Shown here: piece by piece, positions 3,100-51,070 of the stretch
Numbering within the stretch: position 1 is the stretch's first letter
Layout: every line of letters starts with the position of its first letter
Assembly: GCF_040807025.1 (NCBI RefSeq)
Contig: NC_090973.1
Location: forward strand, 853,853 to 917,852
Direction of reading: 5' to 3'
From: Struthio camelus
Lineage: Eukaryota
Length of the DNA: 64,000 bases
Notes under the pieces: model-generated
Database searches by the model: none
What the model was told of the DNA's origin: nothing
What the model saw: the letters and a program-made list of their open reading frames with translations, nothing else
Position numbers and translations under genes: made by a program

Positions 3100-5600
3100 C
3101 GCCCGGACGCCTGGGCCCCCCGCCTTCCCCCCCCCCCCCCGAGGCTGGGAATGGGAGGGCGCCCGGACGCCTGGGCCCGCCGGGAAGGGAAGGAGGGTCT
3201 TGGAGTTCGGAAGGGGAAGGCCCGGACGCCTGGGTCCCTGGGATAAGGCGGGGTGAGGGGGGGGGGGGAGATGCCCGAGGCCGGGGCGGGACGGGGTGGG
3301 GCACCCGGACGCCTGGGCCCCTTTTAGGGGGGGACGGCACGGACGCTTGGGTCACTTGGAGGGAACACCCGGACGCCTGGGCCCCTTGTAGGGGACACCC
3401 GGACGCCTGGGCCCTTCGGAGGGGACACCCGGACGCCTGGGCCCCTTTTGGGGGTCACCCGGATGCTTGGGCCCCTTTTGGGGGGGGCACCCGGACACCT
3501 GGGCCCCTTCTAGGGGACACCCGGACGCCTGGGCCCCTTTTGAGGGGGGAGCACTCGGAAGCCTGGGCCCTTTTTGGGGGGGGGAGCACCCGGACGCCTG
3601 GGCCCCTTTTGCTTGGGGGCACCCGGATGCCTGGGCCCCTTTTGGGGGTCACCCGGATGCCTGGGCCCCTTTTCGGGAGGGACACCCGGACGCCTGGGCC
3701 CCTTTTAGGGGGGGACGGCACGGACGCCTGGGTCACTTGGAGGGAACACCCGGACACCTGGGCCCCTTGTAGGGGATACCCGGACGCCTGGGCCCTTCAG
3801 AGGGGACACCCGGATGCCTGGGCCCCTTTTGTGGGGGGGCACCCGGACACCTGGGCCCCTTCTAGGGGACACCCAGACGCCTGGGCCCCTTTTCCTTGGG
3901 GACACCCGGAAGCCTGGGCCCTTTTTGAGGGGGGAGCACCCGGACGCCTGGGCCCCTTTTGCTTGGGGGCACCCGGACGCCTGGGCCCCTTTTGGGGGGG
4001 GCACCCGGACACCTGGGCCCCTTCTAGGGGACACCCGGACGCCTGGGCCCTTTTTGAGGGGGGACCACCCGGATGCCTGGGCCCCTTTTGTGGGGGCGCA
4101 CCCGGACACCTGGGCCCCTTCTAGGGGACACCCGGACGCTTGGGCCCTTTTTGGGGGGGGGAGCACCCGGACACCTGGGCCCCTTTTGCTTGGGGGCACC
4201 CGGACGCCTGGGCCCCTTCTAGGGGACACCCGGACGCTTGGGCCCTTTTTGAGGGGGGACCACCCGGATGCCTGGGCCCCTTTTGTGGGGGCGCACCCGG
4301 ACGCCTGGGCCCCTTCTAGGGGACACCCGGACGCTTGGGCCCTTTTTGGGGGGGGGAGCACCCAGATGCCTGGGCCCCTTTTGCTTGGGGGCACCCGGAC
4401 GCCTGGGCCCCTTCTAGGGGACACCCGGACGCTTGGGCCCCTTTCGCTTGGGGGCACCCGGATGCCTGGGCCCCTTTTGTGGGGGGGCACCCGGACACCT
4501 GGGCCCCTTCTAGGGGACACCCGGACGCTTGGGCCCCTTTTGCTTGGGGGCACCCGGATGCCTGGGCCCCTTTTGGAGGGGCACCCGGACACCTGGGCCC
4601 CTTCTAGGGGACACCCGGACGCTTGGGCCCCTTTTGAGGGGGGACCACCTGGACACCTGGGCCCTTTTTGAGGGGGGGACACCCGGACACCTGGGCCCCT
4701 TTTGCTTGGGGGCACCCGGATGCCTGGGCCCCTTTTGGGGGTCACCCGGATTCCTGGGCCCCTTTTGTGGGGGGGCACCCGGACACCTGGGCCCCTTCTA
4801 GGGGACACCCGGACGCCTGGGCCCCTTTTGCTTGGGGACACCCGGATGCCTGGGCCCCTTTTGTGGGGGGGCACCCGGACACCTGGGCCCCTTCTAGGGG
4901 ACACCCGGACACCTGGGCCCCTTTTGCTTGGGGGCACCCGGACGCCTGGGCCCCTTTTGGGGGGGACATCCGGATGCCTGGGCCCTTTTTGGGGGGGGCG
5001 GATCACCCGGATGCCTGGGCCCCTTTTCGGGAGGGTCACCCGGACGCCTGGGCCCCTTTTGGGGGGGACATCCGGATGCCTGGGCCCCTTTTTGAGGGGG
5101 GGGGCACCCGGATGCCTGGGTCCCTTTTCGGTGGGGGCACCCGAACGCCTGGGCCCCTTTTGGGTGGCAGCACTCAGAGGCCTGGGCCCTTTTTTGGGGG
5201 GGGGGGGATCACCCGGACACCTGGGCCCTTTTTTGGGGAAAGCACCCGGATGCCTGGGCCCCTTTTGGGTGACTACCCGGACACCTGGGCGCCTTGTAGG
5301 TGATAACCCGGACACCTGGGCCCCTTTTGGGTGGGAAACACCTGGACACCTGGGACCCTTTTGGGGGGGGCACCCGGACGCCTGGGCCCTTTTTTGGGGA
5401 AAGCACCCGGACGCCTGGGCCCCTTGTAGGGGACGCTTGGATCACCCGTCACCCCCCCCAACCCCACCCCACCCCGGACACCTGGGCCCCCCAGGACGCC
5501 TGGGCCCCTCCCGGACGCCTGGGCCCCTCCCCGGACACCTGGGCCCCTCCCAGATGCCTGGGCCCCCCAGGACGCCTGGGCCCCCTCCTGGACACCTGGG
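3100..5600. repeat. Satellite with core CACCCGGACGCCTGGGCCCC and T3-4/G-run spacers (~30-bp units), C-strand on plus
   Basis: About 80 copies. Abuts the TGFB1I1 5' end. Confidence 0.85.
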
Positions 5601-5621
5601 CCCGCAGCCATGTCACCACTT

Positions 5622-5627
5622 TATTGT
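5622..5627 (-). other. Lone AATAAA on the minus strand: candidate ARMC5 polyA signal about 1.6 kb below its stop
   Basis: The only canonical hexamer on the minus strand between the ARMC5 stop (7265) and TGFB1I1 exon 1 (3016). A 12-A tract lies nearby on the plus strand at 5715-5726. Confidence 0.25.
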
Positions 5628-6029
5628 GCGTCGCCTCCGCTACATTCGCGGCCCCCCCCACCCCCCCCGATCCGTCTCCCGTCCCCCCCCTTCCCCACCC
5701 CCGGGGACCCCCCCCCAAAAAAAAAAAATCCCAGAGGGGTCCCCAAAAACCCGGGGATTCCCCCCAAACCTGCGGGGGGAGGGGGGTGTCCCCAAACTCC
5801 TGGGGTCCCTCCAAACCCCCTCCCCAAAACCGAGTGGGTTCCCCCCCCAACCAGGACCCCCTCCTTGGCCCTCAAGGGGTCCCCGATGGGGCGTCCCCAA
5901 GGTCCCCCCCCCACCTCCGTGTCCTCCTCTTCTCCAAGGGGTCCCCAACATCCCTAGGGGGTCTCCAAAGGGGTCTCACCACCTCCCCAAGGTCCTCCGG
6001 AGGGGGCCTGGTGGGCCCCAAAGGGCTCC

Positions 6030-6960
6030 CCGATGTCACTATGGGGGTCCCCAAGGTCTCCGTGGGGGTCCCCCACCTCCACGTCCTCACCAGCTTCCCC
6101 TAAGAGGTCCCCAACATCCCTAGGGGGTCTCCAAAGGGGTCTCACCACCTCCCCAAGGTCCTCCGGAGGGGGCCTGGTGGGCCCCAAAGGGCTCCCCGAT
6201 GTCACTATGGGGGTCCCCAAGGTCCCCGTGGGGGTCCCCCACCTCCACGTCCTCACCAGCTTCCCCTAAGAGGTCCCCAAGGCCCATAGGGGGTCTCCAA
6301 AGGGGGTCTCACCACCTCCCCAAGGTCCTCCGGAGGGGGCCTGGTGGGCCCCAAAGGGCTCCCCGATGTCACTATGGGGGTCCCCAAGGTCCCCGTGGGG
6401 GTCCCCCACCTCCACGTCCTCACCAGCTTCCCCTAAGAGGTCCCCAAGGCCCATAGGGGGTCTCCAAAGGGGTCTCACCACCTCCCCAAGGTCCTCCGGA
6501 GGGGGCCTGGTGGGCCCCAAAGGGCTCCCCGATGTCACTATGGGGGTCCCCAAGGTCTCCGTGGGGGTCCCCCACCTCCACGTCCTCACCAGCTTCCCCT
6601 AAGAGGTCCCCAACATCCCTAGGGGGTCTCCAAAGGGGTCTCACCACCTCCCCAAGGTCCTCCGGAGGGGGCCTGGTGGGCCCCAAAGGGCTCCCCGATG
6701 TCACTATGGGGGTCCCCAAGGTCCCCGTGGGGGTCCCCCACCTCCACGTCCTCACTAGCTTCCCCTAAGAGGTCCCCAAGGCCCATAGGGGGTCTCCAAA
6801 GGGGTCTCACCACCTCCCCAAGGTCCTCCAGGGGGTCCCCAAGGTCACTCTGGGAGTCCTCAAGGTCCCCATGGCGGTCCCCCACCTCCATGTCCCTGTC
6901 TTCTTCCTCTAAGGGGTCCCCAACATCCACGAGGGGTCCCCAAGGTCCATAGGGCATCTC
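6030..6960. repeat. 166-167-bp satellite, about 5.5 monomers
   Basis: The ORF track repeats an identical peptide at 6033, 6199, 6366, 6532 and 6698. Lies in the ARMC5 3' flank. Confidence 0.9.
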
Positions 6961-9199: not shown

Positions 9200-11640
9200 A
9201 CCGATGTCCCCGTGTCCCTGACCCATGTCCCAGCATCTCCGTCCCATGTCCCAGTCCCATGTCCCCATCCCACGTCCCAGTGTCCCCATCCCACGTCCCA
9301 GTAGCTCCATCCCACGTCCCAGCTCCACGTCCCAGTGTCCCCATCCCACGTCCCAGTAGCTCCATCCCACGTCCCAGCTCCGCATCCCAGTGTCTCCATC
9401 CCGTGTCCCAGCTCCACGTCCCAGTATCTCCATCCCACGTCCCAGCTCCACGTCCCAGTGTCCCTGTCCCATGTCCCAGCTCCACGTCCCACTGTCCCCA
9501 TCCCACGTCCCAGTATCTCCATCCCATGCCCCAGCTTCACGTCCCAGTGTCCCTGTCCCACGTCCCAGCTCCATGTCCCACTGTCCCCATCCCACGTCCC
9601 AGTATCTCCATCCCATGCCCCAGCTCCACGTCCCAGTGTCTCCATCCCACGTCCCAGCTCCACATCCCAGTGTCCCCATCCCATGTCCCCGTCCCGTGTC
9701 CCAGTGTCCCCATCCCACGTCCCATTATCTCCATCCCACGTCCCAGCTCCACGTCCCAGTGTCCCCATCCCACGTCCCAGTATCTCCATCCCATGCCCCA
9801 GCTTCACGTCCCAGTGTCCCTGTCCCACGTCCCAGCTCCACGTCCCACTGTTCCCATCCCACGTCCCACTGTTCCCATCCCACGTCCCAGTATCTCCGTC
9901 CCATGCCCCATCCCACGTCCCCGTGTCCCCATCCCACGTCCCCGTCCCGTGTCCCAGTGTCTCCATCCCATGCCCCAGCTCCACGTCCCAGTGTCCCCGT
10001 CCCATGTCCCAGCTCCACGTCCCAGTGTCTCCATCCCACGTCCACGTCCCAGTGTCTCCATCCCATGTCCCATGTCCCCGTCCCATGACCCCAGCTCACG
10101 TCCCAGTATCTCCATCCCATGACCCCAGCTCATGTCCCAGTGTCTCCATCCCATGTCCCCATCCCGTGTCCCAGCTCCATGTCCCAGTGTCTCCATCCCA
10201 TGTCCCATGTCCCCGTCCCATGACCCAGCTCACGTCCCAGTGTCTCCATCCCATGACCCCGTCCCATGACCCCAGCTCCACGTCCCAGTGTCTCCATCCC
10301 ATGACCCCGTCCCATGACCCATGTCCCCGTCCCATGACCCCAGCTCCACGTCCCAGTGTCTCCATCCCATGACCCCGTCCCATGACCCCAGCTCACGTCC
10401 CAGTGTCTCCATCCCATGTCCCCATCCTGTGTCCCAGCTCCACGTCCCAGTGTCCCCATCCCATGACCCCGTCCCATGTCCCATGTCCCCGTCCCATGAC
10501 CCCAGCTCCACGTCCCAGTGTCTCCATCCCATGACCCCGTCCCATGACCCATGTCCCCGTCCCATGACCCCAGCTCACGTCCCAGTGTCTCCATCCCATG
10601 ACCCCGTCCCATGACCCCAGCTCACGTCCCAGTGTCTCCATCCCATGACCCCGTCCCATGTCCCATGACCCCGTCCCATGACCCCAGCTCACGTCCCAGT
10701 GTCTCCATCCCATGACCCCGTCCCATGACCCCATCTCACGTCCCAGTGTCTCCATCCCATGACCCCGTCCCATGACCCCGTCCCATGACCCCAGCTCCAC
10801 GTCCCAGTGTCTCCATCCCATGACCCCGTCCCATGTCCCATGTCCCCGTCCCATGACCCCAGCTCCACGTCCCAGTGTCTCCATCCCATGACCCCATCCC
10901 ATGACCCCAGCTCACGTCCCAGTGTCTCCATCCCATGACCCCATCCCATGTCCCCGTCCCATGACCCCAGCTCCACGTCCCAGTGTCTCCATCCCATGAC
11001 CCCATCCCATGTCCCCGTCCCATGACCCCAGCTCCACGTCCCAGTGTCTCCATCCCATGACCCCGTCCCATGACCCATGTCCCCGTCCCATGACCCCAGC
11101 TCACGTCCCAGTGTCTCCATCCCATGTCCCCGTCCCATGACCCCAGCTCCACGTCCCAGTGTCTCCATCCCATGACCCCATCCCGTGTCCCATGTCCCCG
11201 TCCCATGACCCCAGCTCACGTCCCAGTGTCTCCATCCCATGTCCCCGTCCCATGACCCCAGCTCCACGTCCCAGTGTCTCCATCCCATGACCCCATCCCG
11301 TGTCCCATGTCCCCGTCCCATGACCCCATCTCACGTCCCAGTGTCTCCATCCCATGTCCCCGTCCCATGACCCCAGCTCCACGTCCCAGTGTCTCCATCC
11401 CATGACCCCGTCCCGTGTCCCATGTCCCCGTCCCATGACCCCAGCTCCACGTCCCAGTGTCTCCATCCCATGACCCCGTCCCATGACCCCAGCTCACGTC
11501 CCAGTGTCTCCATCCCACGTCCCCATCCTGTGTCCCAGCTCCACGTCCCAGTGTCTCCATCCCGTGTCCCAACGCCATGTCCCAGTGTCTCCATCCCGTG
11601 TCCCAACGCCACGTCCCAGCGTCCCCGTCCCGTGTCCCCG
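9200..11640. repeat. 2.4-kb array of the 21-bp family CCCACGTCCCAGTGTCTCCAT / CCATGACCCCGTC
   Basis: ARMC5 intron 6. Confidence 0.85.
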
Positions 11641-15900: not shown

Positions 15901-16300
15901 CCAAGAGTGACCCCAGGGACCCCAAGTGTGACACCAGGGACCCCCCAAACACCAATCTTCACCCCAGGAACCCCAAGGGAGACACCAGGGATCCTCCAAA
16001 CACCAACACTCAACCCAGAGACCCCAAGGGAGACACCAGAGATCCCCCAAACACCAACCCTCACCCCGGGGACCCCAAGGGAGACACCAGGGATCCTCCA
16101 AACACCAACCTGCAACTCAGGGACCCCAAAGAAGACACCAGGGACCCCCCAAACACCAACCCTCACCCCAGGGACCCCAAGGGAGACACCAGGGATCCCC
16201 CAAACACCAACCTTCACCCCGGGGACCCCAAGGGAGACACCAGAGATCCTCCAAACACCAACCCTCAGCCCGGGGACCCCAAGGGAGACCCCCCACCACC
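15900..16300. repeat. ~60-bp repeat (GGGACCCCAAGGGAGACACCAGGGATCCCCCAAACACCAACCCTCACCCCA), about 7 copies
   Basis: ARMC5 intron 3, adjacent to the exon 3 donor. Confidence 0.85.
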
Positions 16301-16313
16301 ACCACCGCCTCAC

Positions 16314-17151
16314 TTGAGTCCCCGCAAACTGCCGGCGGCCGCTCCGGAACCGGGCGACCGAGGCGGCTGTTGAGACGGTAGGTCGAAAGAAGCGGCTTCT
16401 TCGTCTTCGTCGTCCTCGGCGCCTTCGCCTCCTCCGTCCTCCTCCTCGCCGGCGCCGGGCCGCCTCCTGCCTTCCTCTTCGTCGGCCCGCGCCCGCAACA
16501 CGTCGACGAGCAACGGGACGAGACCGTCGGCCTCGAGGGCTTCCAGGGCCGGCCGGTCGTAGGCGAAAGCGGCCAAAGCCAAGACGACGCGAGGTCGCCA
16601 AGGCCGAGCCCTCGGGTCGGCCAAGAGGGCGAGCAAGAGGGGCAGGCCGCCGGCGGCCCGCACCCGGGCTCGATTGACGGCCTCGCGGCACAGGAGGCAG
16701 AGGGCGCGAGCCAAGGCGGCGGGCACGCCGGGCGGCGCCGCCAGCGCCCTCCTCACCTCGGCGGCCACGGCTTCGACGGCGCCCGCCGCCCCCAGGGCCG
16801 GCCGTAGGGTGGCTCGGGCGCAAGCGGCGGCGATGGCGCCCAAGGCGGCTTGCCGTCGCTCGCCTTTGCCGCCGGCGGCCAAGGCGGTCAAAGCCGGGGC
16901 GGCGGCGGCCAGCTCGGCGGCGCTCAGGTCGCCCAGGAGGAGGCGGAGGGCCCGCGTGAGGCCGGCGCAGGTCGGGTGGGTGGGCGGCAACGAAGCCAAG
17001 CGGGCGGTCAAAGCTCGGGCGGCTCCGGCTCGCGTCAAGGCGCTCCGGGCGTTGGGATGACCGGCCAGGATGCGGAGGGCTCGGGCGGCGCTGTGCAGGC
17101 ACGAGCCGGCGGCGCACGAGGCCGTCAGGGCCGCCAAGGCCGGCACGGCGC
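16314..17151 (-). CDS. ARMC5: ARMC5 exon 3 (armadillo-repeat core, 279 codons): (G)AVPALAALTASC...ALCLLCREAVNRARVRAAGGLPLLLALLADPRARPWRPRVVLALAAFAYD...EEAASFDLPSQQPPRSPGSGAAAGSLRGL+aa
   Basis: Acceptor ccccaccag. Colinear with human [29 protein letters not shown]...[54 protein letters not shown]...ASWDFPEE...GSFRSLRS. Donor AA|GTGAGG. Confidence 0.75.
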
Positions 17152-17219
17152 CTGGTGGGGACCGAGCGCGGGGTGGTTCGTTAGCGGCCTTCTTTTGGGG
17201 GGGGGGGGAAGGAGAGAGA

Positions 17220-20247: not shown

Positions 20248-20524
20248 CGAGGCGAGGCACCCCGCCGAGGCGGCGGGCCTGGCGGCGGCAACCGGCCTCG
20301 GTGCAGCAGTTGGCGAGGACGCTGAGGGCCAAGTCGAGGGTGCGCCGGGGCCTGTCGGGCCCCAGCAGCTCCAGCAGCGGGCCCAGACCCCCGCGCTCAC
20401 GGAACCGAGCGGCGCCGCCCGCCTTCCGCGTGTGCCGCAACCGCAGCGCCAGCAGCGCCCGGCCCAGGCCCGGCTCCGCCGCCGCCCGCACCGCCTCCAC
20501 GCACCACCCCAGCGGCTCCGCCAT
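20248..20524 (-). CDS. ARMC5: ARMC5 coding exon 1 (ATG at 20524-20522): [92 protein letters not shown]+g
   Basis: Aligns to the human ARMC5 N-terminus ([35 protein letters not shown]...[28 protein letters not shown]). Donor GTGAGTG at 20247-20241. Confidence 0.8.
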
Positions 20525-20929: not shown

Positions 20930-23240
20930 TGTAGTTCCAGGGCGCCTGAGTCCCTCCCCGGACACCTGGGCCCTTCCCCGGACACCTGGGTCCCTCCAGG
21001 ACGCCTGGGCCCTTCCCCGGATGCCTGGGCCCCTCCCAGACACCTAGGCCCTTCCCGGACGCCTGGGCCCCTCCCGGACACCTGGGCCCCTCCCCGGACA
21101 CCTGGGCCCCTCCCGGACACCTGGGTCCCCCCGGACACCTGGGCCCCTCCAGGACGCCTGGGCCCCTCCCGGACGCCTGGGCCCTTCCAGGACGCCTGGG
21201 TCCCTCCCAGACGCCTGGGTCCCTCCCCGGACACCTGGGCCCCTCCCGGAGGCCTGGGTCCCTCCCCGGACACCTGGGCCCCTCCCGGACACCTGGGCCC
21301 CTCCCGGACTCCTGGGTCCCTCCCCGGACACCTGGGCCCCTCCCGGACACCTGGGTCCCTCCCGGACACCTGGGCCCCTCCCGGACACCTGGGTCCCCCC
21401 GGACACCTGGGTCCCTCCCCGGACTCCTGGGCCCCTCCCGGACGCCTGGGCCCTCCCCGGACGCCTGGGCCCTTCCCTGGACACCTGGGCCCTTCCTGGA
21501 CACCTGGGTCCCTCCCGGACGCCTGGGCCCCTCCCCGGACGCCTGGGTCCCTCCTGGACGCCTGGGCCCCTCCCGGACTCCTGGGCCCTTCCAGGACGCC
21601 TGGGTCCCTCCCGGACGCCTGGGCCCCTTCCCGGACACCTGGGCCCTTCCCCGGACGCCTGGGCCCCTCCCGGACACCTGGGTCCCTCCCAGACACCTGG
21701 GCCCTCCCCGGACGCCTGGGCCCTTCCCCGGACACCTGGGCCCTTCCTGGACACCTGGGTCCCTCCCTGGACGCCTGGGCCCTTCCAGGACGCCTGGGCC
21801 CCTCCCGGACACCTGGGTCCTTCCCGGACGCCTGGGCCCCTCCCGGACACCTGGGTCCTTCCCCGGACACCTGGGCCCTCCCCGGACGCCTGGGCCCTCC
21901 CGGACGCCTGGGCCCCTCCCGGACACCTGAGTCCTTCCCCGGACACCTGGGCCCTCCCCGGACGCCTGGGTCCCTCCCGGAAGCCTGGGCCCTTCCAGGA
22001 CGCCTGGGCCCCTCCCGGACACCTGGGTCCCTCCCGGACACCTGGGTCCCTCCCCGGACACCTGGGTCCTCCCCGGACGCCTGGGCCCCTCCCGGACACC
22101 TAGGTCCTTCCCCGGACACCTGGGCCCCTCCCGGACACCTGGGTCCCTCCCGGACACCTGGGCCCCTCCCGGACACCTGGGTCCCCCCGGACACCTGGGC
22201 CCCTCCCGGACGCCTGGGCCCTTCCAGGACGCCTGGGCCCCTCCCGGACGCCTGGGTCCCTCCCCGGACACCTGGGCCCCTCCCGGACACCTGGGCCCCT
22301 CCCGGACTCCTGGGTCCCTCCCCGGACACCTGGGCCCCTCCCGGACACCTGGGTCCCTCCCAGACACCTGGGCCCCTCCCGGACGCCTGGGTCCTCCCGG
22401 ACACCTGGGCCCCTCCCGGACACCTGGGCCCCTCCCGGACTCCTGGGTCCCTCCCCGGACACCTGGGCCCCTCCCGGACTCCTGGGTCCCTCCCCGGACA
22501 CCTGGGCCCCTCCCGGACACCTGGGTCCCTCCCAGACACCTGGGCCCCTCCCGGACGCCTGGGTCCTCCCGGACACCTGGGCCCCTCCCCGGACACCTGG
22601 GCCCTTCCCGGACACCTGGGCCCCTCCCGGACACCTGGGTCCCTCCCCGGACACCTGGGCCCTTCCCGGACACCTGGGCCCCTCCCGGACACCTGGGTCC
22701 CTCCCAGATACCTGGGCCCCTCCCGGAGGCCTGGGCCCCTCCCGGACACCTGGGTCCCTCCCAGACACCTGGGCCCTCCCCGGACGCCTGGGCCCTCCCG
22801 GACGCCTGGGCCCCTCCCTGGACACCTGAGTCCTTCCCCGGACACCTGGGCCCTCCCCGGACGCCTGGGTCCCTCCCGGAAGCCTGGGCCCTTCCCGGAC
22901 GCCTGGGCCCCTCCCGGACACCTGGGTCCCTCCCGGACACCTGGGTCCCTCCCCGGACACCTGGGTCCTCCCCGGACGCCTGGGCCCCTCCCGGACACCT
23001 AGGTCCTTCCCCGGACACCTGGGCCCTCCCCGGACGCCTGGGCCCTCCCGGACGCCTGGGCCCCTCCCGGACACCTGGGTCCTTCCCCGGACACCTGGGC
23101 CCTCCCCGGACGCCTGGGTCCCTCCCGGAAGCCTGGGCCCTTCCAGGATGCCTGGGCCCCTCCCGGACACCTGGGTCCCTCCCGGACACCTGGGCCCTTC
23201 CCCGGACGCCTGGGCCCCTCCCGGACGCCTGGGCCCCTCC
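20930..23240. repeat. 20-bp satellite (CCCGGACACCTGGGCCCCTC)n, about 115 copies, between the ARMC5 and SLC5A2 5' ends
   Basis: Near-perfect tandem copies. Confidence 0.92.
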
Positions 23241-23449
23241 CGGACGAGGGCAGTGGGCCGTGGTGCTGCGGGGGAGGGGACAGACCCGGACGCCTGGGTC
23301 CACCGAGGGCAATGGGAGGGGGAGGGCGCAGGCCCGGACGCCTGGGCCCCCTGGGTGGGTGGGGACATGGGGGGCACCGAGGCGTGCTGGGGGGAGGGGG
23401 GGGGCCCGGATGCCTGGGCCCCCTCGCTCCTCCCCCCACCGCCGAGGCG

Positions 23450-23459
23450 GGTATTTAGG
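23450..23459 (+). promoter_or_regulatory. TATA-like element GTATTTAGGG upstream of SLC5A2
   Basis: The only AT hexamer between the satellite and the ATG. Sits 37-42 bp 5' of the ATG at 23494, which implies a very short 5' UTR. Confidence 0.35.
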
Positions 23460-23493
23460 GGGCAGCCCGGACGCCTGGGCCCGCCGGGGCGCC

Positions 23494-27908: not shown

Positions 27909-27914
27909 GTGAGC

Positions 27915-28400
27915 CGGACGCCTGGGCCCCTGGCGTGGGGGGCACCCGGACACCTGGGTCCCATGGAGGGGACACCTGGATGCCTGGGTCCCTTGTAGGG
28001 GACACCCGGACACCTGGGCCCCCTGGAGTGGGGAGCACCTGGACACCCGGGTCCCTTGGAGGGAGCACCCGGACACCTGGGTCCGATGGAGGGGACACCC
28101 GGACGCCTGGGCCCCCTGGAGTGGGGAGCACCTGGATGCCTGGGTCCCTTGGAGGGGGCACCTGGGTCCCATGGAGGGGGCACCCGGACGCCTGGGTCCC
28201 ATGGAGGGGACACCCGGACGCCTGGGCCCCCTGGAGTGGGGAGCACCCGGACACTTGGGTGCCATGGAGGGGACTCCTGGAAGCCTGGGTCCCCTTGGGG
28301 AATGGGAGCACCTGGTCACCAGGTGAGGTGGGGGGGGTGGGTGCCATGGAGGAGGCGGTGCTGGAGGTGGGAGGGCGGGGTGACCACCCGGACGCCTGGG
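27915..28400. repeat. CCGGACRCCTGGGYCCC-core array (C-strand on plus)
   Basis: SLC5A2 intron 4. Confidence 0.8.
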
Positions 28401-28410
28401 TCCCTTGCAG

Positions 28411-38390: not shown

Positions 38391-38402
38391 CGCCCGCCGC
38401 AG

Positions 38403-38553: not shown

Positions 38554-38559
38554 GTGGGG

Positions 38560-39395
38560 CCCAGGTGTCCGGGGAAGGACCCAGGTGTCCGGGGGGGGGC
38601 CCAGGTGTCCGGGGGGGGGCCCAGGTGTCCGGGAAGGGCCCAGGCGTCCTGGAGGGGCCCAGGCGTCCGGGGTGCCCAGCTGTCTGGGAGGGGCCCAGGC
38701 GTCCGGGAGGGGCCCAGGTGTCCAGGAGGGACGCAGGTGTCCGGGAGGGGCCCAGGCGTCCGGGAGGGGCCCAGGTGTCCAGGAGGGACGCAGGTGTCCG
38801 GGAGGGGCCCAGGCGGCCGTGGGGGACCCAGGCGGCCAGGGAGGGACCCAGGTGTCCGGGAGGGACCCAGGTGTCCGGGGGGGCCCAGGTGTCCGGGAGG
38901 GGCCCAGGTGTCCAGGAGGGACCCAGGTGTCCGGGAGGGGCCCAGGCGGCCGTGGGGGACCCAGGCGGCCAGGGAGGGACCCAGGTGTCCGGGAGGGACC
39001 CAGGTGTCCGGGAGGGGCCCAGATGTCCGGGAGGGCCCAGGCGTCTGGGAGGGCCCAGGCGTCCGGGGGGAACCCAGGTGTCCGGGGGGGCCCAGGCGTC
39101 CGGGAGGGCCCAGGCATCCGGGGGGAACCCAGGTGTCCGGGGGGGACCCAGGAGTCCGGGAAGGGCCCAGGCGTCCTGGAGGGGCCCAGGTGTCCGGGAG
39201 GGACCCAGGCGGCCGGGGGGCCCAGGAGTCCGGGAGGGGCCCAGGCGGCCGGGAGGGGCCCAGGCGTCCAGGAGGGGCCCAGGTGTCCGGGGAAGGGCCC
39301 AGGCATCCAGGAGGGACCCAGGTGTCCGGGGAGGGGCCCAGGTGTCCGGGGAAGGGGCCCAGGCGTCCGGGCCGTGGGGGACCCAGGCGTCCGGG
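38560..39395. repeat. GGGCCCAGGCGTCCGGG arrays (G-strand orientation of the 18-bp core)
   Basis: SLC5A2 intron 11. Confidence 0.88.
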
Positions 39396-39400
39396 CGCAG

Positions 39401-39569
39401 GCTCTGGATCGGGGCGCTGGTGGGGCTCAGCCTGGCCTGGCTGCCGGTGGTGCGGGGGGCGCAGGGCGGGCGCCTCTTCGACTACATCCAGGCCGTGGCC
39501 AGTTACTTCGCGCCCCCCATCGCCGCCGTCTTCTTCCTCGCCGTCTTCGTGCCCCGCGTCAACGAGCCC
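39401..39569 (+). CDS. SLC5A2: SLC5A2 exon 12: (R)[56 protein letters not shown]
   Basis: Matches [56 protein letters not shown]. Acceptor gggcgcag, donor GTGAGT. Confidence 0.92.
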
Positions 39570-39589
39570 GTGAGTGACGGCGTCCGGGG

Positions 39590-41200
39590 CGGACCGAGGG
39601 GCCCAGGAGTCTGGGGAGGGGCCCAGGGGGCCCAGGCGTCCGGGGCAGACAGAGGGGACCCAGGCATCCGGAGCAAACTGAGGGGCCCAGGCGTCCGGGG
39701 CAGACCAAGGGGCCCAGGCGTCTGGCCAGGAAGGGACCCAGGTGTCCAGGCAGGAGGGGACCCAGGCGTCCGGGCGGGAAGGGGCCCAGGCGTCCGGGCG
39801 GGAGGGGACCCAGGCGTCCGGGCGGGAAGGGGCCCATGTGTCCGGGGCCGAGGGGACCCAGGCGTCCGGGCAGGAAGGGGCCCAGGTGTCCAGGCAGGAA
39901 GGGGCCCAGGCGTCCGGGCGGGAGGGGACCCAGGTGTCCAGGCAGGAAGGGACCCAGGTGTCCGGGCAGGAGGGGACCCAGGCGTCTGGGCAGGAAGGGA
40001 CCCAGGTGTCCGGGGCCGAGGGGACCCAGGCGTCCGGGCAGGAAGGGGCCCAGGTGTCCGGGCAGGAGGGGACCCAGGTGTCCGGGCGGGAAGGGGCCCA
40101 TGTGTCCGGGGCCGAGGGGACCCAGGCGTCCGGGCAGGAAGGGGCCCAGGTGTCCAGGCAGGAAGGGACCCAGGTGTCCGGGCAGGAAGGGGCCCAGGTG
40201 TCCGGGCAGGAGGGGACCCAGGTGTCCGGGCGGGAAGGGGCCCATGTGTCCGGGGCCGAGGGGACCCAGGCGTCCGGGCAGGAAGGGGCCCAGGCGTCCG
40301 GGGCCGAGGGGACCCAGGCGTCAGGGCGGGAAGGGACCCAGGTGTCCAGGCAGGAGGGGACCCAGGCGTCCAGGCAGGAAGGGGCCCAGGCGTCCGGGGC
40401 CGAGGGGACCCAGGCGTCCGGGCAGGTGGGGACCCAGGCGTCCAGGCAGGAGGGGACCCAGGCGTCCAGGCAGGAAGGGGCCCAGGCGTCCGGGGCCGAG
40501 GGGACCCAGGCGTCCGGGCAGGTGGGGACCCAGGCGTCCAGGCAGGAAGGGGCCCAGGTGTCCGGGGCCGAGGGGACCCAGGCGTCCGGGCGGGAAGGGG
40601 CCCAGGCGTCCGGGGCCGAGGGGACCCAGGCGTCCGGTCGGGAAGGGGCCCAGGCGTCCGGGGCCGAGGGGACCCAGGCGTCCGGGCAGAAGGGGACCCA
40701 GGCGTCCGGGCAGGAAGGGGCCCAGGTGTCCAGGCAGGAAGGGACCCAGGTGTCCGGGCAGGAAGGGGCCCAGGCGTCCAGGCAGGAGGGGACCCAGGCG
40801 TCCGGGCAGCAAGGGGCCCAGGTGTCCGGGCAGGAAGGGACCCAGGCGTCCGGGCAGCAAGGGGCCCAGGCGTCCGGGGCCAAGGGGACCCAGGCGTCCG
40901 GGCTGAGGGGACCCAGGTGTCTGGGCAGGCCAAGGGGCCCAGGCGTCCGGGCGGGAAGGGGCCCAGGTGTCCGGGGCCTAGGGGACCCAGGTGTCCGGGC
41001 AGGAAGGGGCCCAGGCGTCCGGGCGGGAAGGGGCCCAGGCGTCCGGGGCCAAGGGGACCCAGGCGTCCGGGCGGGAAGGGGCCCAGGCGTCCGGGGCCGA
41101 GGGGACCCAGGCGTCCGGGCAGAAGGGGACCCAGGCGTCCGGGCGGGAAGGGGCCCAGGCGTCCGGGGCCGAGGGGACCCAGGCGTCCGGGCGCTGCCCT
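39590..41200. repeat. ~40-bp units (GGGCAGGAAGGGGCCCAGGTGTCCGGGCAGGAGGGGACCCAGGCGTCC)
   Basis: SLC5A2 intron 12. Confidence 0.88.
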
Positions 41201-41210
41201 CGCCCCGCAG

Positions 41211-41426
41211 GGCGCCTTCTGGGGGCTGCTGGGGGGGCTGGCGCTGGGCCTGGCCCGGATGGTGCCCGAGTTCGCCCTGGGCCCGGACTCGTGCGGGGCC
41301 CCCGGCCGCTGCCCCCCCCTCGTCTGCGGCCTCCACTACCTGCACTTCGCCATCGGCCTCTTCCTCGCCACCGGCCTCCTCGTCGTCGCCGTCTCCCTCT
41401 GCCACCCGCCCATCCCCCGGCACCAT
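41211..41426 (+). CDS. SLC5A2: SLC5A2 exon 13: [72 protein letters not shown]
   Basis: Matches [72 protein letters not shown]. Acceptor cgccccgcag, donor GTGAGA. Confidence 0.9.
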
Positions 41427-41439
41427 GTGAGAGGGGGCC

Positions 41440-42790
41440 CAGGCGGCCGGGAGGGGCCCAGGCGGCCGGGGGTGGTGAAAGGGGCCCAGGCGTCCGGGGA
41501 GACACCTGAGGGGCCCAGGCGTCCGGGGTGGTGAGAGGGGCCCAGGCGTCTGGGGAGACCCCTGAGGGGCCCAGGCGTCCAGGGTGGCAGGAGGGACCCA
41601 GGTGTCCGAGTAGGAAGGGGCCCAGGCGGCCGGGGGTGGTGAGAGGTGCCCAGGCGTCTGGGGAGATGGAGGGGCCCAGGCGTCCGGGGAGACCCCTGAG
41701 GGGCCCAGGTGTCTGGGGGTGGTGAGAGGGGCCCAGGCGTCCGGGGAGACCCCTGAGGGGCCCAGGCGTCCGGGGTGGCAGGAGGGACCCAGGTGTCCGA
41801 GTAGGAAGGGGCCCAGGCGGCCAGGGGTGGTGAGAGGGGCCCAGGCATCCAGGGAGATGGAGGGACCCAGGCGTCCGGGGAGACCCCTGAGGGGCCCAGG
41901 CATCTGGGGTTGGTGGGAGGGGCCCAGGCGTCCGGGGAGACCCCTGAGGGGCCCAGGTGTCCGGGGGTGGTGAGAGGGGCCCAGGCATCCAGGGAGAGCC
42001 CTGAGGGACCCAGGCATCTGGGGAGATAGAGGGGCCCAGGTGGTCGGGGAGACCCCTGAGGGGCCCAGGCATCCGGGGTTGTTGGGAGGGGCCCAGGCAT
42101 CCGGGGAGATGGAGGGACCCAGGCGTCCGGGGAGACCCCTGAGGGGCCCAGGTGTCTGGGAGTGGTGAGAGGGGCCCAGGCGTCCGGGGAGAGCCCTGAG
42201 GGGCCCAGGTGTCCAGGGTGGCGGGAGGGACCCAGGTGTCCGAGTAGGATGGGGCCCAGGTGTCCGGGGGTGGTGAGAGGGGCCCAGGCGTTCGGGGAGA
42301 CCCCTGAGGGGCCCAGGTGTCCGGGGAGATGGAGGGGCCCAGGCGTCCGGGGAGACCCCTGAGGGGCCCAGGCATCCGGGGTTGTTGGGAGGGGCCCAGG
42401 CATCCGGGGAGATGGAGGGACCCAGGCAGCCGGGGAGACCTCTGAGGGGCCCAGGCGTCCGGGGTGGTGAGAGGGGCCCAGGCGTCCGGGAAGACCCCTG
42501 AGGGGCCCAGGTGTCTGGGGGTGGTGAGAGGGGCCCAGGCGTCCGGGGAGAGCCCTGAGGGACCCAGACGTCCGAGGAGATGGAGGGGCCCAGGCGTCCG
42601 GGGTGGCCCCTGAGGGGCCCAGGCGTCCGGGAAGACCCCTGAGGGGCCCAGGTGTCTGGGGGTGGTGAGAGGGGCCCAGGCGTCCGGGGAGAGCCCTGAG
42701 GGACCCAGACGTCCGAGGAGATGGAGGGGCCCAGGCGTCCGGGGTGGCCCCTGAGGGGCCCAGGCGTCCGGGCGCAGGGACCCAGGCGTC
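41440..42790. repeat. ~100-bp units built from GGGGCCCAGGCGTCCGGGGAGACCCCTGAG plus GGTGGTGAGAGG
   Basis: SLC5A2 intron 13. Confidence 0.85.
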
Positions 42791-42802
42791 CGGGCCCCCC
42801 AG

Positions 42803-42884
42803 CTCCACCGCCTGGTGTTCAGCCTCCGCCACAGCCGGGAGCCGCGAGTCGACCTCGACCAGGAGCCGCCGGTCCAGCTCCAGG
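42803..42884 (+). CDS. SLC5A2: SLC5A2 exon 14: [27 protein letters not shown]+g
   Basis: SGLT2-specific [24 protein letters not shown]. Acceptor gggccccccag, donor GTAGGG. Confidence 0.8.
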
Positions 42885-42889
42885 GTAGG

Positions 42890-44330
42890 GGCCCAGGCGT
42901 CCGGGAGGGGCCCAGGCGTCCAGGGAAGGGCCCAGGCATCCAGGAGGGACCCAGGTGTCCAGGAGGGGCCCAGGTGTCCGGGAGGGACCCAGGTGTCCGG
43001 GAAGGGGCCCAGGTGTCCAGGAGGGACCCAGGCGTCCGGGAAGGGACCCAGGTGTCCGGGAAGGGCCCAGGCATCCGGGAGGGAACCAGGTGACCGGGAG
43101 GGACCCAGGCGTCCGGGGAGGGGCCCAGGTGTCCAGGAGGGACCCAGGCGTCCGGGAAGGGACCCAGGTGTCCGGGAAGGGCCCAGGCATCCGGGAGGGA
43201 ACCAGGTGACCGGGAGGGACCCAGGCGTCCGGGAAGGGGCCCAGGTGACCGGGAAGGGCCCAGGCATCCGGGAGGGAACCAGGTGTCTGGAAAGGGCCCA
43301 GGCGTCCGGGAGGGGCCCAGGTGTTCAGGGAGGGACCCAGGAGTCCGGGGAGGGACCCAGGCGTCCGGGAGGGACCCAGGAGTCTGGGAAGGGCCCAGGC
43401 GTCCGGGGAAGGGCCCAGGCATCCAGGAGGGACCCAGGTGTCCAGGAGGGGCCCAGGTGTCCGGGAGGGACCCAGGTGTCCGGGAAGGGGCCCAGGTGTC
43501 CAGGAGGGACCCAGGCGTCCGGGAAGGGACCCAGGTGTCCGGGAAGGGCCCAGGCATCCGGGAGGGAACCAGGTGACCGGGAGGGACCCAGGCGTCCGGG
43601 GAGGGGCCCAGGTGTCCAGGAGGGACCCAGGCGTCCGGGGAGGGACCCAGGTGTCCGGGAGGGACCCAGGCGTCCGGGAGGGCCCAGGCGTCCGGGAGGG
43701 ACCCAGGCGTCCGGGGGGGGCCCAGGCGTCCGGGAAGGACCCAGGCATCCGGGGAGGGACCCAGGTGTCCGGAAAGGGCCCAGGCGTCCGGGAGGGGCCC
43801 AGGTGTTCAGGGAGGGACCCAGGAGTCCGGGGAGGGACCCAGGCGTCCGGGAGGGGCCCAGGCATCTGGGAAGGGCCCAGGCGTCCGGGAGGGGCCCAGG
43901 CATCCTGGAGGGGCCCAGGAGTCCGGGAAGGGCCCAGGCATCTGGGAAGGGCCCAGGAGTCCGGGAGGGGCCCAGGCGTCCGGGAAGGGACCCAGGCGTC
44001 CGGGAGGGGCCCAGGTGTTCAGGGAGGGACCCAGGAGTCCGGGGAGGGACCCAGGCGTCCGGGAGGGGCCCAGGCATCTGGGAAGGGCCCAGGCGTCCGG
44101 GAGGGGCCCAGGCATCCTGGAGGGGCCCAGGAGTCCGGGAAGGGCCCAGGCATCTGGGAAGGGCCCAGGAGTCCGGGAGGGGCCCAGGCGTCCGGGAAGG
44201 GACCCAGGCGTCCGGGAAGGGACCCAGGTGTCCGGGAGGGGCCCAGGCGTCCGGGGGGGGCCCAGGCGTCTGGGAAGGACCCAGGTGTCCGGGGGGGCCC
44301 AGGAGTCCGGGAAGGGCCCAGGCGTCCGGG
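42890..44330. repeat. ~20-bp units GGGCCCAGGCGTCCGGGAGG
   Basis: SLC5A2 intron 14. Confidence 0.88.
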
Positions 44331-44403
44331 ACAGCAGCTGAAACGACCCCTTCCTTCCCCCTCCTCCCCCCCCCCCGCCCCCCCCACCCCCAACAACCGC
44401 CAG

Positions 44404-48589: not shown

Positions 48590-49680
48590 AGTGGGGGGGA
48601 GCCGGACGCCTGGGCCCCCTCGGCTCCGACGCCTGGGGGGGTCTTTTACCCCGGACGCCCGGGCCCCTCCCGGACGCCTGGGCCCCTCCCCCGGACGCCT
48701 GGGCCCCCTCGGCTCCGACGCCTGGGGGGTCTTTTACCCCGGACGCCCGGGCCCCTCCCGGACGCCTGGGCCTCTCCCCCGGACGCCTGGGCCCTCTCGG
48801 TTCTGATGCCTGGGGGGGGTCTTTTACCCCGGACGCCTGGGCCCCTCCTGGATGCCTGGGTCCCTCCCCCGGACGCCTGGGCCCCCTCGGCTCTGACGCC
48901 TGGGGGGGTCTTTTACCCCGGACGCCTGGGCCCCCTCGGCTCCGACGCCCTGCACACCCTCCCGCCCGGACGCCTGGGCCCCCTCGGCTCCGACACCCGG
49001 GGGGTCTTTTACCCTGGACGCCTGGGCCCCTCCTGGATGCCTGGGTCCCTCCCCCGGACGCCTGGGCCCCCTAAACCGCCCGGACGCCTGGGCCCCCTCG
49101 GCTCCGACACCCGGGGGGTCTTTTACCCTGGACGCCTGGGCCCCTCCTGGATGCCTGGGTCCCTCCCCCGGACGCCTGGGCCCCCTAAACCGCCCGGACG
49201 CCTGGGCCCCCTCGGCTCCGACACCCGGGGGGTCTTTTACCCCGGACGCCTGGGCCCCTCCTGGATACCTGGGTCCCTCCCCCGGACGCCTGGGCCCCCT
49301 AAACCACCCGGACGCCTGGGACCCCTCGGCTCCGACACCCGGGGGGTCTTTTACCCCGGACGCCTGGGCCCCTCCTGGATACCTGGGTCCCTCCCCCGGA
49401 CGCCTGGGCCCCCTAAACCACCCGGACGCCTGGGCCCCCTCAGCTCCGATGCCCTGTACACCCTCCCACCCGGACGCCTGGGCCCCCTCGGCTCTGACAC
49501 CCGGGGGGTCTTTTACCCCGGACGCCTGGGCCCCTCCTGGATGCCTCGGCCCTCCCGGACGCCTGGGCCCCCTCAGCTCCGACGCCCAGGGCACCCTCAG
49601 TCCGGACACCTGGGTCCCTTCCCGGACGCCTGGGTTCCTCCCCCGGACACCTGGGCCCCTCCCCGGACGCCTGGGCCCCT
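48590..49680. repeat. ~120-bp units combining CCGGACGCCTGGGCCCC and GGGGGGTCTTTTACC
   Basis: RUSF1 intron. Confidence 0.82.
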
Positions 49681-49682
49681 AC

Positions 49683-49753
49683 CTTCGGCGGGGCGGAGCA
49701 CGATGATGTAATCCTCGGTGCCGCTCTCCACGGCTTTCCTGAACTCGGCCTCA
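49683..49753 (-). CDS. RUSF1: RUSF1 exon: (D)EAEFRKAVESGTEDYIIVLRPAE+g
   Basis: Matches VFELQQLVEGHQESYLLCWDQSQ. Acceptor cccctccctcgcag, donor GTAGGGG. An AT-rich unique island inside satellite. Confidence 0.7.
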
Positions 49754-49789
49754 CTGCGAGGGAGGGGCATGAGCAGCGCCCGGACGCCT

Positions 49790-51070
49790 GGGCCCCTCCC
49801 AGACACCTGGGCCCCTCCCAGACTCCTGGGCCCTTCCCCAGACACCTGGGCCCCTCCCAGACACCTGGGCCCCTCCCGGACGCCTAGGCCCCTCCAGGAC
49901 ACCTGGGCCCTTCCAGGACTCCTGGGTCCCTCCCAGAACACCTGGGCCCCTTCCCGGACACCTGGGCCCCTCCCCGGACACCTGGGTCCCTCCCGGACAC
50001 CTGGGCCCCTCCTGGACGCCTGGGCCCCCCCGGACACCTGGGCCCCTCCCCGGACACCTGGGCCCCTTCCCGGACCCCTGGGCCCCTCCCGGACGCCTGG
50101 GCCCCTCCCAGACGCCTGGGTCCATCCCGGACACCTGGGCCCCTCCAGGACGCCTGGGTCCCTCCCGGACACCTGGGTCCCTCTCGGACGCCTGGGCCCC
50201 TCCCGGACACCTGGGCCCTTCCCTGGGTCCCTCCCTGGACGCCTGGGTCCTTGCCAGGACGTCTGGGCCCCTCCCGGACGCCTGGGCCCCTCCAGGACAC
50301 CTGGGCCCCTCCCCCGGACTCCTGGGCCCCTCCCAGACACCTGGGTCCCTCTAGGACACCTGGGCCCTTCCCTGGACGCCTGGGCCCCTCCCCGGACACC
50401 TGGGCCCCTTCCCGGACCCCTGGGCCCCTCCCGGACGCCTGGGCCCCTCCCAGACGCCTGGGTCCATCCCGGACACCTGGGTCCCTCCCGGACGCCTGGG
50501 CCCCTCCCGGACACCTGGGTCCCTCTCGGACACCTGGGCCCCTCCCGGACACCTGGGCCCTCCTGGACGCCTGGGTCCCTCCCGGACACCTGGGTCCCTC
50601 CCGGACGCCTGGGCCCCTCCCAGACGCCTGGGTCCATCCCGGACACCTGGGTCCCTCCCGGACGCCTGGGTCCCTCCCGGACACCTGGGTCCCTCTCGGA
50701 CACCTGGGCCCCTCCCGGACACCTGGGCCCTCCTGGACGCCTGGGTCCCTCCCGGACACCTGGGTCCCTCCTGGACGCCTGGGTCCCTCCTGGACACCTG
50801 GGCCCCTCCCGGACACCTGGGTCCCTCCCGGACACCTGGGCCCTCCTGGACGCCTGGGTCCCTCCCAGAAGCCTGGGTCCCTCCCGGACTCCTGGGCCCC
50901 TCCTCGGACGCCTGGGCCCTTCCCCGGACGTCTGGGCCCCTCCCGGACGCCTGGGCCCCTCCCCGGACACCTGGGCCCTCCCGGACACCTGGGCCCCTCC
51001 CGGACACCTGGGCCCTCCCCGGACACCTGGGCCCCCCCCGGACGCCTGGGCCCCCCCCGGACGCCTGGGC
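49790..51070. repeat. 20-bp satellite (CCCGGACACCTGGGCCCCTC)n, the same family as 20930-23240
   Basis: RUSF1 intron. Confidence 0.92.

Follow-up and report, generated by a model that had tools for sequence, protein, structure and literature searches.

One 18-bp minisatellite core occupies the same introns and splice borders of SLC5A2 in ostrich, tinamou and pigeon and leaves remnants in seriema and hawksbill turtle

In a 64,000-nucleotide stretch of the ostrich genome (Struthio camelus, assembly GCF_040807025.1, contig NC_090973.1, forward strand positions 853,853 to 917,852; the window), an 18-bp core, CCCGGACRCCTGGGYCCC, recurs in tandem arrays inside introns and close to start codons in and around the gene SLC5A2. 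An earlier note made from the letters of the window had described one core that seeds arrays in both orientations, and had suggested a locus-specific or microchromosome-specific satellite that colonises introns. The locus raises the question whether such arrays are recent, local colonists or whether they were inherited together with the genes that they occupy.

The core was found 259 times as an exact match (144 on the plus and 115 on the minus strand), against 0.01 expected from dinucleotide shuffles, and 535 times when up to two mismatches were allowed. At this threshold the copies form five clusters and one singleton, which agree in position and orientation with the arrays described in the earlier note:

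1759-1776, minus strand: single core copy
3102-5604, plus strand: core cluster, 72 copies, spacing 30/33
20957-23483, plus strand: core cluster, 121 copies, spacing 19
27913-28404, plus strand: core cluster, 13 copies, spacing 30
38556-44330, minus strand: core cluster, 228 copies, spacing 19/24/28-29
48601-51073, plus strand: core cluster, 100 copies, spacing 19 plus 88/114-bp higher-order units

We write the degenerate search pattern of the core as CCCGGACNCCKGGGYCC and the repeat of the G-rich strand as (GGGGCCCAGGYGTCCGGGA)n. Units of 19 bp (core + T), 24/48, 30, 33 and 88/114 bp are all built around this one 18-bp core, and each unit carries two CpGs, as had been noted. By wrap-around alignment, 14-15 of the 18 core positions are 95-100% conserved in every ostrich array. 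The variable sites are CpG transitions (positions 3/4 and 7/8; C to T or G to A) together with positions 15 and 18 (C/T); the R in the core is due to the G to A change at a CpG. All ostrich arrays show the same R/Y dimorphism and a very high identity within the array. About ten arrays, spread over three genes and two intergenic regions, are built from the core unit. Besides this family, no fewer than three others recur at separate sites of the window in both orientations.

Genes were located by probing the window with human protein sequences and by subsequently refining the splice sites. Their order is TGFB1I1 (minus), ARMC5 (minus), SLC5A2 (plus) and RUSF1 (minus); the 5' ends of genes given here are start codons only, not transcription start sites. 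For SLC5A2, 15 exons were recovered on the plus strand between the ATG at 23494 and the stop codon at 44543, all of them intact, in order and with canonical splice sites, and the assembled protein of 605 amino acids matches the NCBI entry 'sodium/glucose cotransporter 2-like [Struthio camelus]' with 100% identity along its whole length. All introns of SLC5A2 consist mostly of arrays, except the 84-bp intron 6. Exon mapping places the plus-strand core array in intron 4 and the minus-strand arrays in introns 11-14, so that the flip of orientation reported within this gene is borne out.

The orthologous locus was compared in seven other species: the tinamou Eudromia (L001), the seriema Cariama (L002), the hawksbill turtle (L003), a chickadee (L004), the lizard Elgaria (L005), the pigeon Patagioenas (L006) and a honeyguide (L007). 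Core matches were counted at up to two mismatches, for which 0.04-0.10 matches are expected by chance in comparable loci; array copy numbers are those of the assemblies, with one haplotype per species. The core fills the same introns, in the same orientation and up to the same splice borders, in ostrich, tinamou and pigeon, and remnants are present in seriema and hawksbill turtle:

Tinamou: 4 copies from the SLC5A2 promoter to the ATG (plus), 29 in intron 4 (plus), 91 in introns 11-14 (minus)
Pigeon: 287 matches against 0.1 expected, in the promoter (plus), intron 4 (plus), the late introns (minus) and RUSF1 (plus)
Seriema: 11 matches, among them copies in the promoter, in intron 11 and at the RUSF1 donor
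Hawksbill turtle: 10 matches, at the acceptor end of intron 4 (plus), in introns 12 and 13 (minus) and in a 55-bp array of the same RUSF1 intron (plus)
Chickadee: 0 matches; arrays of different or diverged units
Honeyguide: 0 matches; arrays of different units
Lizard (47% GC): 1 match with a looser 17-nt pattern, in intron 4 (plus)

The turtle holds a single core copy in intron 4, and among the remnants promoter copies occur in the seriema only. Since the same family lies at the same sites across species, the arrays were inherited and are not recent colonists. Of the idea of a satellite that colonises introns, it is borne out that introns are filled by arrays, which also extend to the 5' ends of genes; colonisation as something ongoing or local is contradicted by the same introns, the same orientation and the copies at the same splice borders in tinamou, pigeon, seriema and turtle.

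The correspondence extends to the borders of the arrays. A core lies 5-11 nt ahead of the SLC5A2 ATG in ostrich, tinamou and pigeon, whereas no ATG-proximal copy was found in the seriema. The promoter array of the pigeon ends 5 nt before the ATG, and its last intron 4 copy adjoins exon 5. Between species, border copies also match at the acceptor of intron 4 and at the donors of SLC5A2 intron 12 and of RUSF1. Intron 12 begins with gtgagtgcca-GGGGACCCAGG... in the turtle and with gtgagcgccga-GGGGCCCCGG... in the tinamou, and the RUSF1 donor is followed by a core within 1-25 nt in ostrich, seriema and turtle.

When shared 11-mers were tabulated intron by intron, the matrix was diagonal for ostrich against tinamou, which means that most SLC5A2 introns retain their own array family. 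Between ostrich and turtle the matrix was positive only for introns 11-14 against introns 12-13, that is, for the core introns. Families that are specific for one intron and kept across birds (window 23581-38402 compared with L001, L002 and L004) are CCCTGGGACCCCTAACTG in intron 1, CCAAATACCC in intron 3, ACTGGGAGG in intron 7, CATGGCCRCCAA in intron 9 and GGGGTATT in intron 10. The non-core 21-mer of intron 1 differs at 2 of 21 positions between ostrich and seriema. This retention of a family per intron across birds conflicts with the recent and independent expansions that have been published.

The turtle locus has a GC content of 64% and already contains the motif. Its last SLC5A2 intron holds an 8.6-kb array of a 40-bp unit that is also present in intron 10 (L003 22228-30840 and 17595-20008); repeat-filled introns of SLC5A2 are therefore not restricted to birds. 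The honeyguide SLC5A2 extends over 52 kb and contains two arrays of about 13 kb each with unrelated 31-bp and 22-bp units, free of the core (L007 10313-36519). In this lineage the intron arrays have been wholly replaced.

Array size and unit length differ by lineage, and so do sequence variants of the core. In the tinamou a T to G change at position 11 (CCGGGG) is found in the promoter copies and in introns 4, 11, 13 and 14; the same variant is present in a gene model of Nothoprocta, in which an array is translated at the end of an FIBP-like gene. In the pigeon the variant CCCGAACTCC/CCCGCACTCC occurs in all arrays and in both orientations, and most copies carry the altered core CCCGAACTCC; copies at the edges, beside the ATG and beside the exon-5 acceptor, remain CCCGGACGCC. 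A lineage variant that is common to all arrays of one species implies sequence exchange among the arrays, and we read these patterns as concerted evolution between dispersed arrays in which older variants stay frozen at the edges. The exchange would have taken place by non-allelic gene conversion or by unequal exchange. Growth within one lineage is seen at the SLC5A2 promoter, where the 2.3-kb array of the ostrich grew out of older dispersed promoter copies: the array is without a counterpart in the tinamou, whereas the dispersed copies and the TATA box are present in both species and partly in the seriema.

In our opinion the arrays probably belong to one old minisatellite family that was present at sites in SLC5A2 and RUSF1 before birds and turtles separated. 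This explanation comprises the concerted evolution described above, a seed of the MIR type and growth by slippage. The ancestral unit would have been about 55-80 bp long, would survive in the turtle and would come from the tRNA-like head of a short interspersed element (SINE) of the MIR type. The core would correspond to ...CCAGGACTCCTGGGTTC... of the SINE head, enriched in G+C in birds, and the various spacers would be deletion derivatives of the longer unit. The arrays would have grown by slippage and unequal exchange as on avian dot chromosomes, without need for a sequence-specific function, and their proximity to promoters and splice sites would be inherited from the location of the ancestral copies.

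The turtle sequences are the basis for this proposed origin. Turtle intron 4 contains about 2.5 copies of a unit of about 75 bp, ...GGTGGGTTAGAGC...GGGCTGGGAGCCAGGACTCCTGGGTTCTATCCCCAGCTCTGGGAGG..., and the last copy enters the exon-5 acceptor exactly where the core is situated in ostrich, tinamou and pigeon. The T of GGACTCC is still found in intron 4 of the tinamou and in most pigeon copies, and by eye the 30/33-bp units of the ostrich look like deletion derivatives of the long unit, which would explain why one core is accompanied by varied spacers. The MIR consensus used for the alignments was an approximate one. With positions 13-69 of this consensus the turtle intron 4 unit aligned at a score of 40 (shuffles 18.6 +/- 2.4; z 8.8), and the 55-mer of turtle RUSF1 aligned with positions 38-86 (z 4.5), reaching ...GCTCTGCCNCNTACNAGCTG. 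Used with nhmmer, this consensus recovered five copies of SINEs from the lizard locus (E 3e-6 to 5e-4), and the turtle promoter contains two MIR-like heads on the plus strand where birds have cores. Strings resembling an A-box and a B-box were recognized by eye only, and the first ~20 nt past the MIR head are present only in the turtle RUSF1 unit.

A number of results weigh against this explanation, most of them against the MIR step. It depends on an approximate consensus and is significant only with the turtle units; neither the bird arrays alone nor the lizard copy gave a significant alignment with this consensus. ARAGORN found no tRNA-like structure in the turtle unit, and Rfam reported no tRNA even at E<=10. 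Two strings of the CORE domain, searched with up to three mismatches, had no match in the window or in the tinamou, seriema and turtle loci. The long turtle unit, searched with nhmmer in 240 kb of the loci, was found only in the turtle SLC5A2 promoter and intron 4, without dispersed copies. The support from the lizard consists of a single match with two mismatches. Lastly, the consensus of the core arrays shows 0-2 changes in 18 positions between species, compared with a larger divergence at fourfold degenerate sites, so that some constraint, or a bias in homogenisation or conversion, is possible for the core. On balance we regard the MIR head as a likely, not a proven, origin of the unit, with somewhat less assurance than the age of the family. 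The intron 4 copy may even be older than the split from the lizards.

The high conservation leads to the alternative that survives best, although we consider it improbable, namely that the core is a functional cis element under selection. It could bind a protein (a transcription factor or an insulator factor) or act at the RNA or DNA level, for instance as a splicing enhancer by means of its G-runs or of its centre CAG/GTG, which resembles a 5' splice site. Raw differences at fourfold degenerate sites of SLC5A2 amount to 29% between ostrich and tinamou, 22% between ostrich and seriema and 43% between ostrich and turtle. The core is more conserved than these sites: its consensus is the same at 15-16 of 18 positions in ostrich and turtle copies. 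Also in line with a function are the copy 5-11 nt before the SLC5A2 ATG in three birds, the cores at the same donors and acceptors in several lineages, and the orientation of the intronic arrays, as in six of seven the G-rich strand is the coding strand, matching the coding-strand bias of G-quadruplex (G4) motifs in bird introns (10.1101/2025.10.17.683159). On the other hand, neither chickadee nor honeyguide has the core family at this locus, the seriema is without the ATG-proximal copy and most pigeon copies have a changed core. The orientation relative to transcription differs between the SLC5A2 and TGFB1I1 promoters and between intron 4 and introns 11-14, and the number of copies per site ranges from 1 to more than 100. 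Moreover, the non-core array of intron 1 is about as conserved, and the turtle consensus is biased by the way in which the copies were found.

Several properties by which the core might be conserved or might act were considered. GC-biased conversion that freezes G and C positions is weakened as the full cause of the conservation, as fourfold sites with a GC content of 96-97% still differ by 29% between ostrich and tinamou. A hairpin or cruciform (remnant stem CCCGG-ACRC-CTGGG) was rejected; in five array segments DNA folding gave z values of -0.29 to +1.31, no better than shuffles. Canonical G4 motifs (four runs of at least three G, loops of 1-7 nt) were likewise rejected, with about 0-4 motifs per kb in the core arrays against a window mean of 3.9-4.8. 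When loops of up to 12 nt are admitted, the G-strand of most arrays carries 8-20 G4 motifs per kb, and intron 4 about 2. Retention of CpGs toward the promoters was weak at the TGFB1I1 array (p ~0.02-0.03) and absent at the SLC5A2 array and was not used as evidence. For a protein-binding role, which the sequences neither support nor refute, no specific factor is indicated. The CpG-decayed variant of the core resembles an E-box (CAGGTG), and a G4C3/G3C4 stretch is PLAGL1-like; we take both resemblances to be leads only.

Slightly less probable still is the far-reaching form of this alternative, in which a cis element, the core, would have been conserved over more than 250 million years and held in register at promoters and splice borders of neighbouring GC-rich genes in turtles and birds. 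If so, it might work as a site of the core promoter, as an insulator or as a signal for splicing within introns, and the arrays would be amplified reservoirs of it. The tandem-repeat architecture of avian dot-chromosome genes would then be ancient and partly functional instead of a product of recent instability.

Inheritance of the arrays could also be questioned altogether. A regime of mutation, slippage or GC-biased conversion might repeatedly create the same 'attractor' motif, so that the arrays would have arisen by independent convergence. Chicken dot chromosomes have indeed been described with local, recent and species-independent expansions (PMC12954441), several families of the window share short G/C-rich words, and the honeyguide demonstrates that arrays can be wholly replaced. 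We nevertheless hold convergence to be quite unlikely: convergence would hardly give five lineages one and the same 18-mer in matching introns, equally oriented and with border copies at equal nucleotide offsets, the k-mer matrix is diagonal for most introns, and the motif is already present in the turtle locus with its 64% GC. Even less credible is a young mobile or locus-specific satellite that spread recently in the ostrich locus. The very high identity within arrays, the one R/Y dimorphism in all of them and the ostrich-specific 2.3-kb array would suit such a satellite, but tinamou, pigeon, seriema and turtle hold the same family at these very sites, and other genes of pigeon and Nothoprocta contain it too. 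An assembly artefact, with arrays collapsed, expanded or misoriented in a long-read assembly of low-complexity GC-rich DNA, is just as implausible, for although the sequencing and assembly of dot-chromosome repeats are known to be difficult, the arrangement recurs in four bird assemblies, all independent, as well as in one from a turtle, and all 15 SLC5A2 exons are intact, ordered and canonically spliced, with a protein equal to the NCBI model.

Having preferred one old, inherited minisatellite family, we describe the individual arrays and the genes around them. The following features were located, besides SLC5A2 itself:

1759..1795, minus strand: isolated core copy (1759-1776) and inverted partial core, ~25 nt upstream of the TGFB1I1 exon-2 acceptor
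3003..3015, minus strand: first coding exon of TGFB1I1 (MDDL; ATG 3015-3013, donor ~3003); the gene exits the window at its left end
3102..3238, plus strand: three dispersed cores (3102, 3160, 3221) between the TGFB1I1 ATG and the regular array; both CpGs retained in all
3294..5432, plus strand: ~65 units of 30/33 bp (core + TTTTA + G-run + AGCA), with 63/96-bp higher-order units
5467..5603, plus strand: short 19-bp core array at the distal end of the 30/33-bp array
~20524 down to ~7500, minus strand: ARMC5 (ATG 20522..20524; Pfam PF24768, E 2.9e-43)
20945..23245, plus strand: ~120 units of 19 bp with 58/172-bp higher-order units, between ARMC5 and SLC5A2; no counterpart array in the tinamou
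23277..23483, plus strand: four dispersed cores (23277, 23333, 23407, 23466) upstream of the SLC5A2 ATG
27913..28404, plus strand: SLC5A2 intron 4, nearly all 30-bp units; C-strand in the transcript
38556..39395, minus strand: SLC5A2 intron 11, 19-bp units; G-strand in the transcript
39579..41191, minus strand: SLC5A2 intron 12, 24/48-bp units; G-strand in the transcript
41450..42794, minus strand: SLC5A2 intron 13, irregular 28/29-bp spacing, 443-bp higher-order unit; G-strand in the transcript
42885..44331, minus strand: SLC5A2 intron 14, 19-bp units from the donor GTAGGGGCCCAGG onward, 116-bp higher-order unit; G-strand in the transcript
beyond 63 kb down to ~44.7 kb, minus strand: RUSF1
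48601..49680, plus strand: RUSF1 intron after the exon ...EAEFRKAVESGTEDYIIVLRPAEG, 88/114-bp units (two cores each) and 20-bp units; G-strand in the RUSF1 transcript
49779..51075, plus strand: adjacent RUSF1 intron, ~68 units of 19 bp; G-strand in the RUSF1 transcript

Toward each of the two promoters the regular units are succeeded by dispersed cores with unrelated spacers. The closeness of arrays to two start codons was confirmed: the core nearest to the TGFB1I1 ATG (3102-3119) is 87 bp away, and the regular array upstream of SLC5A2 ends at 23245, 249 bp from the ATG, with dispersed cores continuing up to 11 bp from it. The last of these (to 23483) lies between a TATTTA box (23452-23457) and the ATG. 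At least the dispersed copy at 23277 aligns, flank included, with copies of tinamou and seriema. The TATA-like box with its conserved flanks, GGGTATTTAGGGGGCAG, is situated ~30-40 nt before the SLC5A2 ATG (window 23450-23466); it is identical in ostrich and seriema (L002 ~9957-9973) and reads GGGTATATAGGGGGTGT in the tinamou (L001 ~9955-9971). None was found in the last 240 nt ahead of the pigeon SLC5A2 ATG.

ARMC5, which had not been recognized in the earlier note, has its ARM exon at 16290-17257 and is arranged head-to-head with SLC5A2, as in the tinamou (L001 7879-7610). From its position it follows that the array at 20.9-23.5 kb fills the divergent intergenic region of ARMC5 and SLC5A2. 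The cores at 3102-5604 occupy the region between TGFB1I1 and ARMC5. The introns of ARMC5 are arrays without the core. Away from any array, the inverted core pair at 1759-1795 reads GGGCCCAGGTGTCC and then CCCGGACGCCTGGGTCCC on the minus strand.

In intron 4 of SLC5A2 the first core starts 5 nt past the donor and the last core ends 6 nt short of the acceptor; the intron starts with gtgag-CCGGACGCC... and ends with ...CCCGGACGCCTGGGTCCCttgcag. The donors of introns 11 (GTGGGGCCCAGG) and 14 are themselves repeat sequence, and the acceptor of intron 11 is preceded by a core and not by a pyrimidine tract. At the acceptors of introns 11 and 13 (39380-39400 and 42780-42802) a G-rich core, GGCGTCCGGGCGCAG/G, is found without a pyrimidine tract; despite these G-rich acceptors the spliced SLC5A2 protein is intact and identical to the NCBI model. 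The RUSF1 array at 48601..49680 adjoins the donor, likewise in seriema and turtle.

Between positions 29961 and 64000 of the window three array families are mirrored about the convergent 3' ends of SLC5A2 and RUSF1. One side carries ACTGGGAGGC, GGGGTATTG and the G-strand of the core, and the other side the C-strand of the core, CAACACCCC and CCTCCCAGTG. Owing to this layout the G-rich strand is the coding strand in both genes. The shared order of three mirrored families alone has a chance of 1 in 6.

The core family is not locus-specific as had been suggested, since it is present in other genes too. Core-family arrays are translated in a TLCD3B-like gene model of the pigeon (P0121, 'ceramide synthase isoform X3') and at the end of the FIBP-like gene model of Nothoprocta (P0122), and in the seriema core copies lie near ITGAM-like and PYCARD genes. 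The evidence from outside the locus thus comprises two read-through gene models and a few seriema copies. In P0121 and P0122 the repeats are read as long proline/glycine-rich stretches, and both models are probably annotation artefacts. A census of translated arrays yielded only these 2 convincing proteins in 5.8 billion, with 17 weak matches among representatives. The follow-up search for FIBP returned anonymous short contigs only, and a 33-nt dimer pattern had no match in metagenomes, which were searched for host contamination. Public gene models that translate core arrays as protein, as in the pigeon TLCD3B-like gene and Nothoprocta FIBP, deserve a practical warning. Upstream of pigeon SLC5A2, a model of 1223 amino acids without a Pfam domain (L006 1-6917) overlaps 3.7 kb of core arrays whose orientation is opposite to that of the promoter array; this model may be spurious or may represent ARMC5 with repeats read as protein.

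Several known systems invite comparison. Minisatellites of the Jeffreys 33.6/33.15 type comprise many GC-rich loci with varied unit lengths that have one short core in variable flanks. In a similar way the units of 19, 24, 30, 33, 88 and 114 bp of the ostrich all hold the 18-bp core. In contrast to the Jeffreys type, the core is 18 bp long and by eye only its CAGGTG-like stretch resembles GGGCAGGAXG, and the ostrich arrays lie within ~50 kb, inside introns and promoters. Minisatellites are also known to arise when part of a mobile element is amplified in tandem. The present arrays resemble MIR, a CORE-SINE, in that copies occur in both orientations and that turtle units align to positions 13-69 and 38-86 of the approximate consensus. 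They differ from it as no CORE body, poly-A tail, target-site duplications or tRNA-like fold were seen, and the bird units (19-33 bp), in which the B-box is truncated, are too short to be classified alone.

Close counterparts are found on the dot chromosomes of birds. That the window is located on a dot microchromosome is hinted at, only indirectly, by the 4.79-Mb record that bears the identical ostrich protein. The window has a G+C content of 69%, a CpG observed/expected ratio of 0.38 and, by Tandem Repeats Finder masking, 81.5% tandem repeats. Introns full of imperfect tandem repeats have been described for dot-chromosome genes in the chicken telomere-to-telomere paper (PMC9974502) and in a study of 2026 (PMC12954441). 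The general phenomenon is therefore already published; the latter study termed it 'sequence stuttering' and interpreted it as recent expansion of local origin that took place independently in different species and had not been reported outside birds. According to a preprint of 2026, tandem repeats make up more than 70% of dot-chromosome intron sequence and G4 motifs favour the coding strand (10.1101/2025.10.17.683159). The G4 minisatellites of that preprint are matched here by G-strand runs of the type GGG(A)GGGG...GGG, with 15-20 motifs per kb at loops of up to 12 nt and mostly on the coding strand; with a loop limit of 7 nt, in contrast, the core arrays hold ~0 per kb, less than the average of 4-5 in the window.

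The window fits the dot-chromosome repeat class. Its genes are GC-rich, their introns are almost entirely imperfect arrays with units of tens of bp, the repeats reach up to the exon borders, the G-rich strands are mostly coding and tandem repeats cover 81.5% of the window. A literature text search for the core motif or MIR strings gave nothing relevant, and four features look new in that no prior description was found: the deep orthology, the core shared by several genes, the concerted evolution between dispersed arrays and the possible seed from a SINE head. If the latter is correct, the head of a transposon would be a possible seed of such arrays. The promoter-proximal and splice-site-adjacent copies identified here are candidates for functional tests.

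The bird dot chromosomes have been assembled only recently, and their repeat-filled introns were described as a new, recent and species-independent instability. The arrays of the SLC5A2 locus differ from stuttering in two respects. First, the unit is not of local origin, as one unit is used in about ten arrays and three genes and, in addition, in other genes of pigeon and Nothoprocta. Second, the arrays are neither recent nor species-independent, since family, orientation and border copies are common to ostrich, tinamou, pigeon, seriema and turtle; the same introns are occupied across Palaeognathae and some Neoaves, and the unit was traced to the turtle, where an 8.6-kb intronic array is present in SLC5A2. 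Copy number and unit length of the core arrays are nonetheless lineage-specific. At least some arrays of this class would consequently be stable features of gene architecture. Since the common ancestor of birds and turtles they would have retained their family, orientation and border copies, with concerted homogenisation in each lineage, and the locus offers a concrete means of dating the dot-chromosome repeat landscape and of tracing where it came from.

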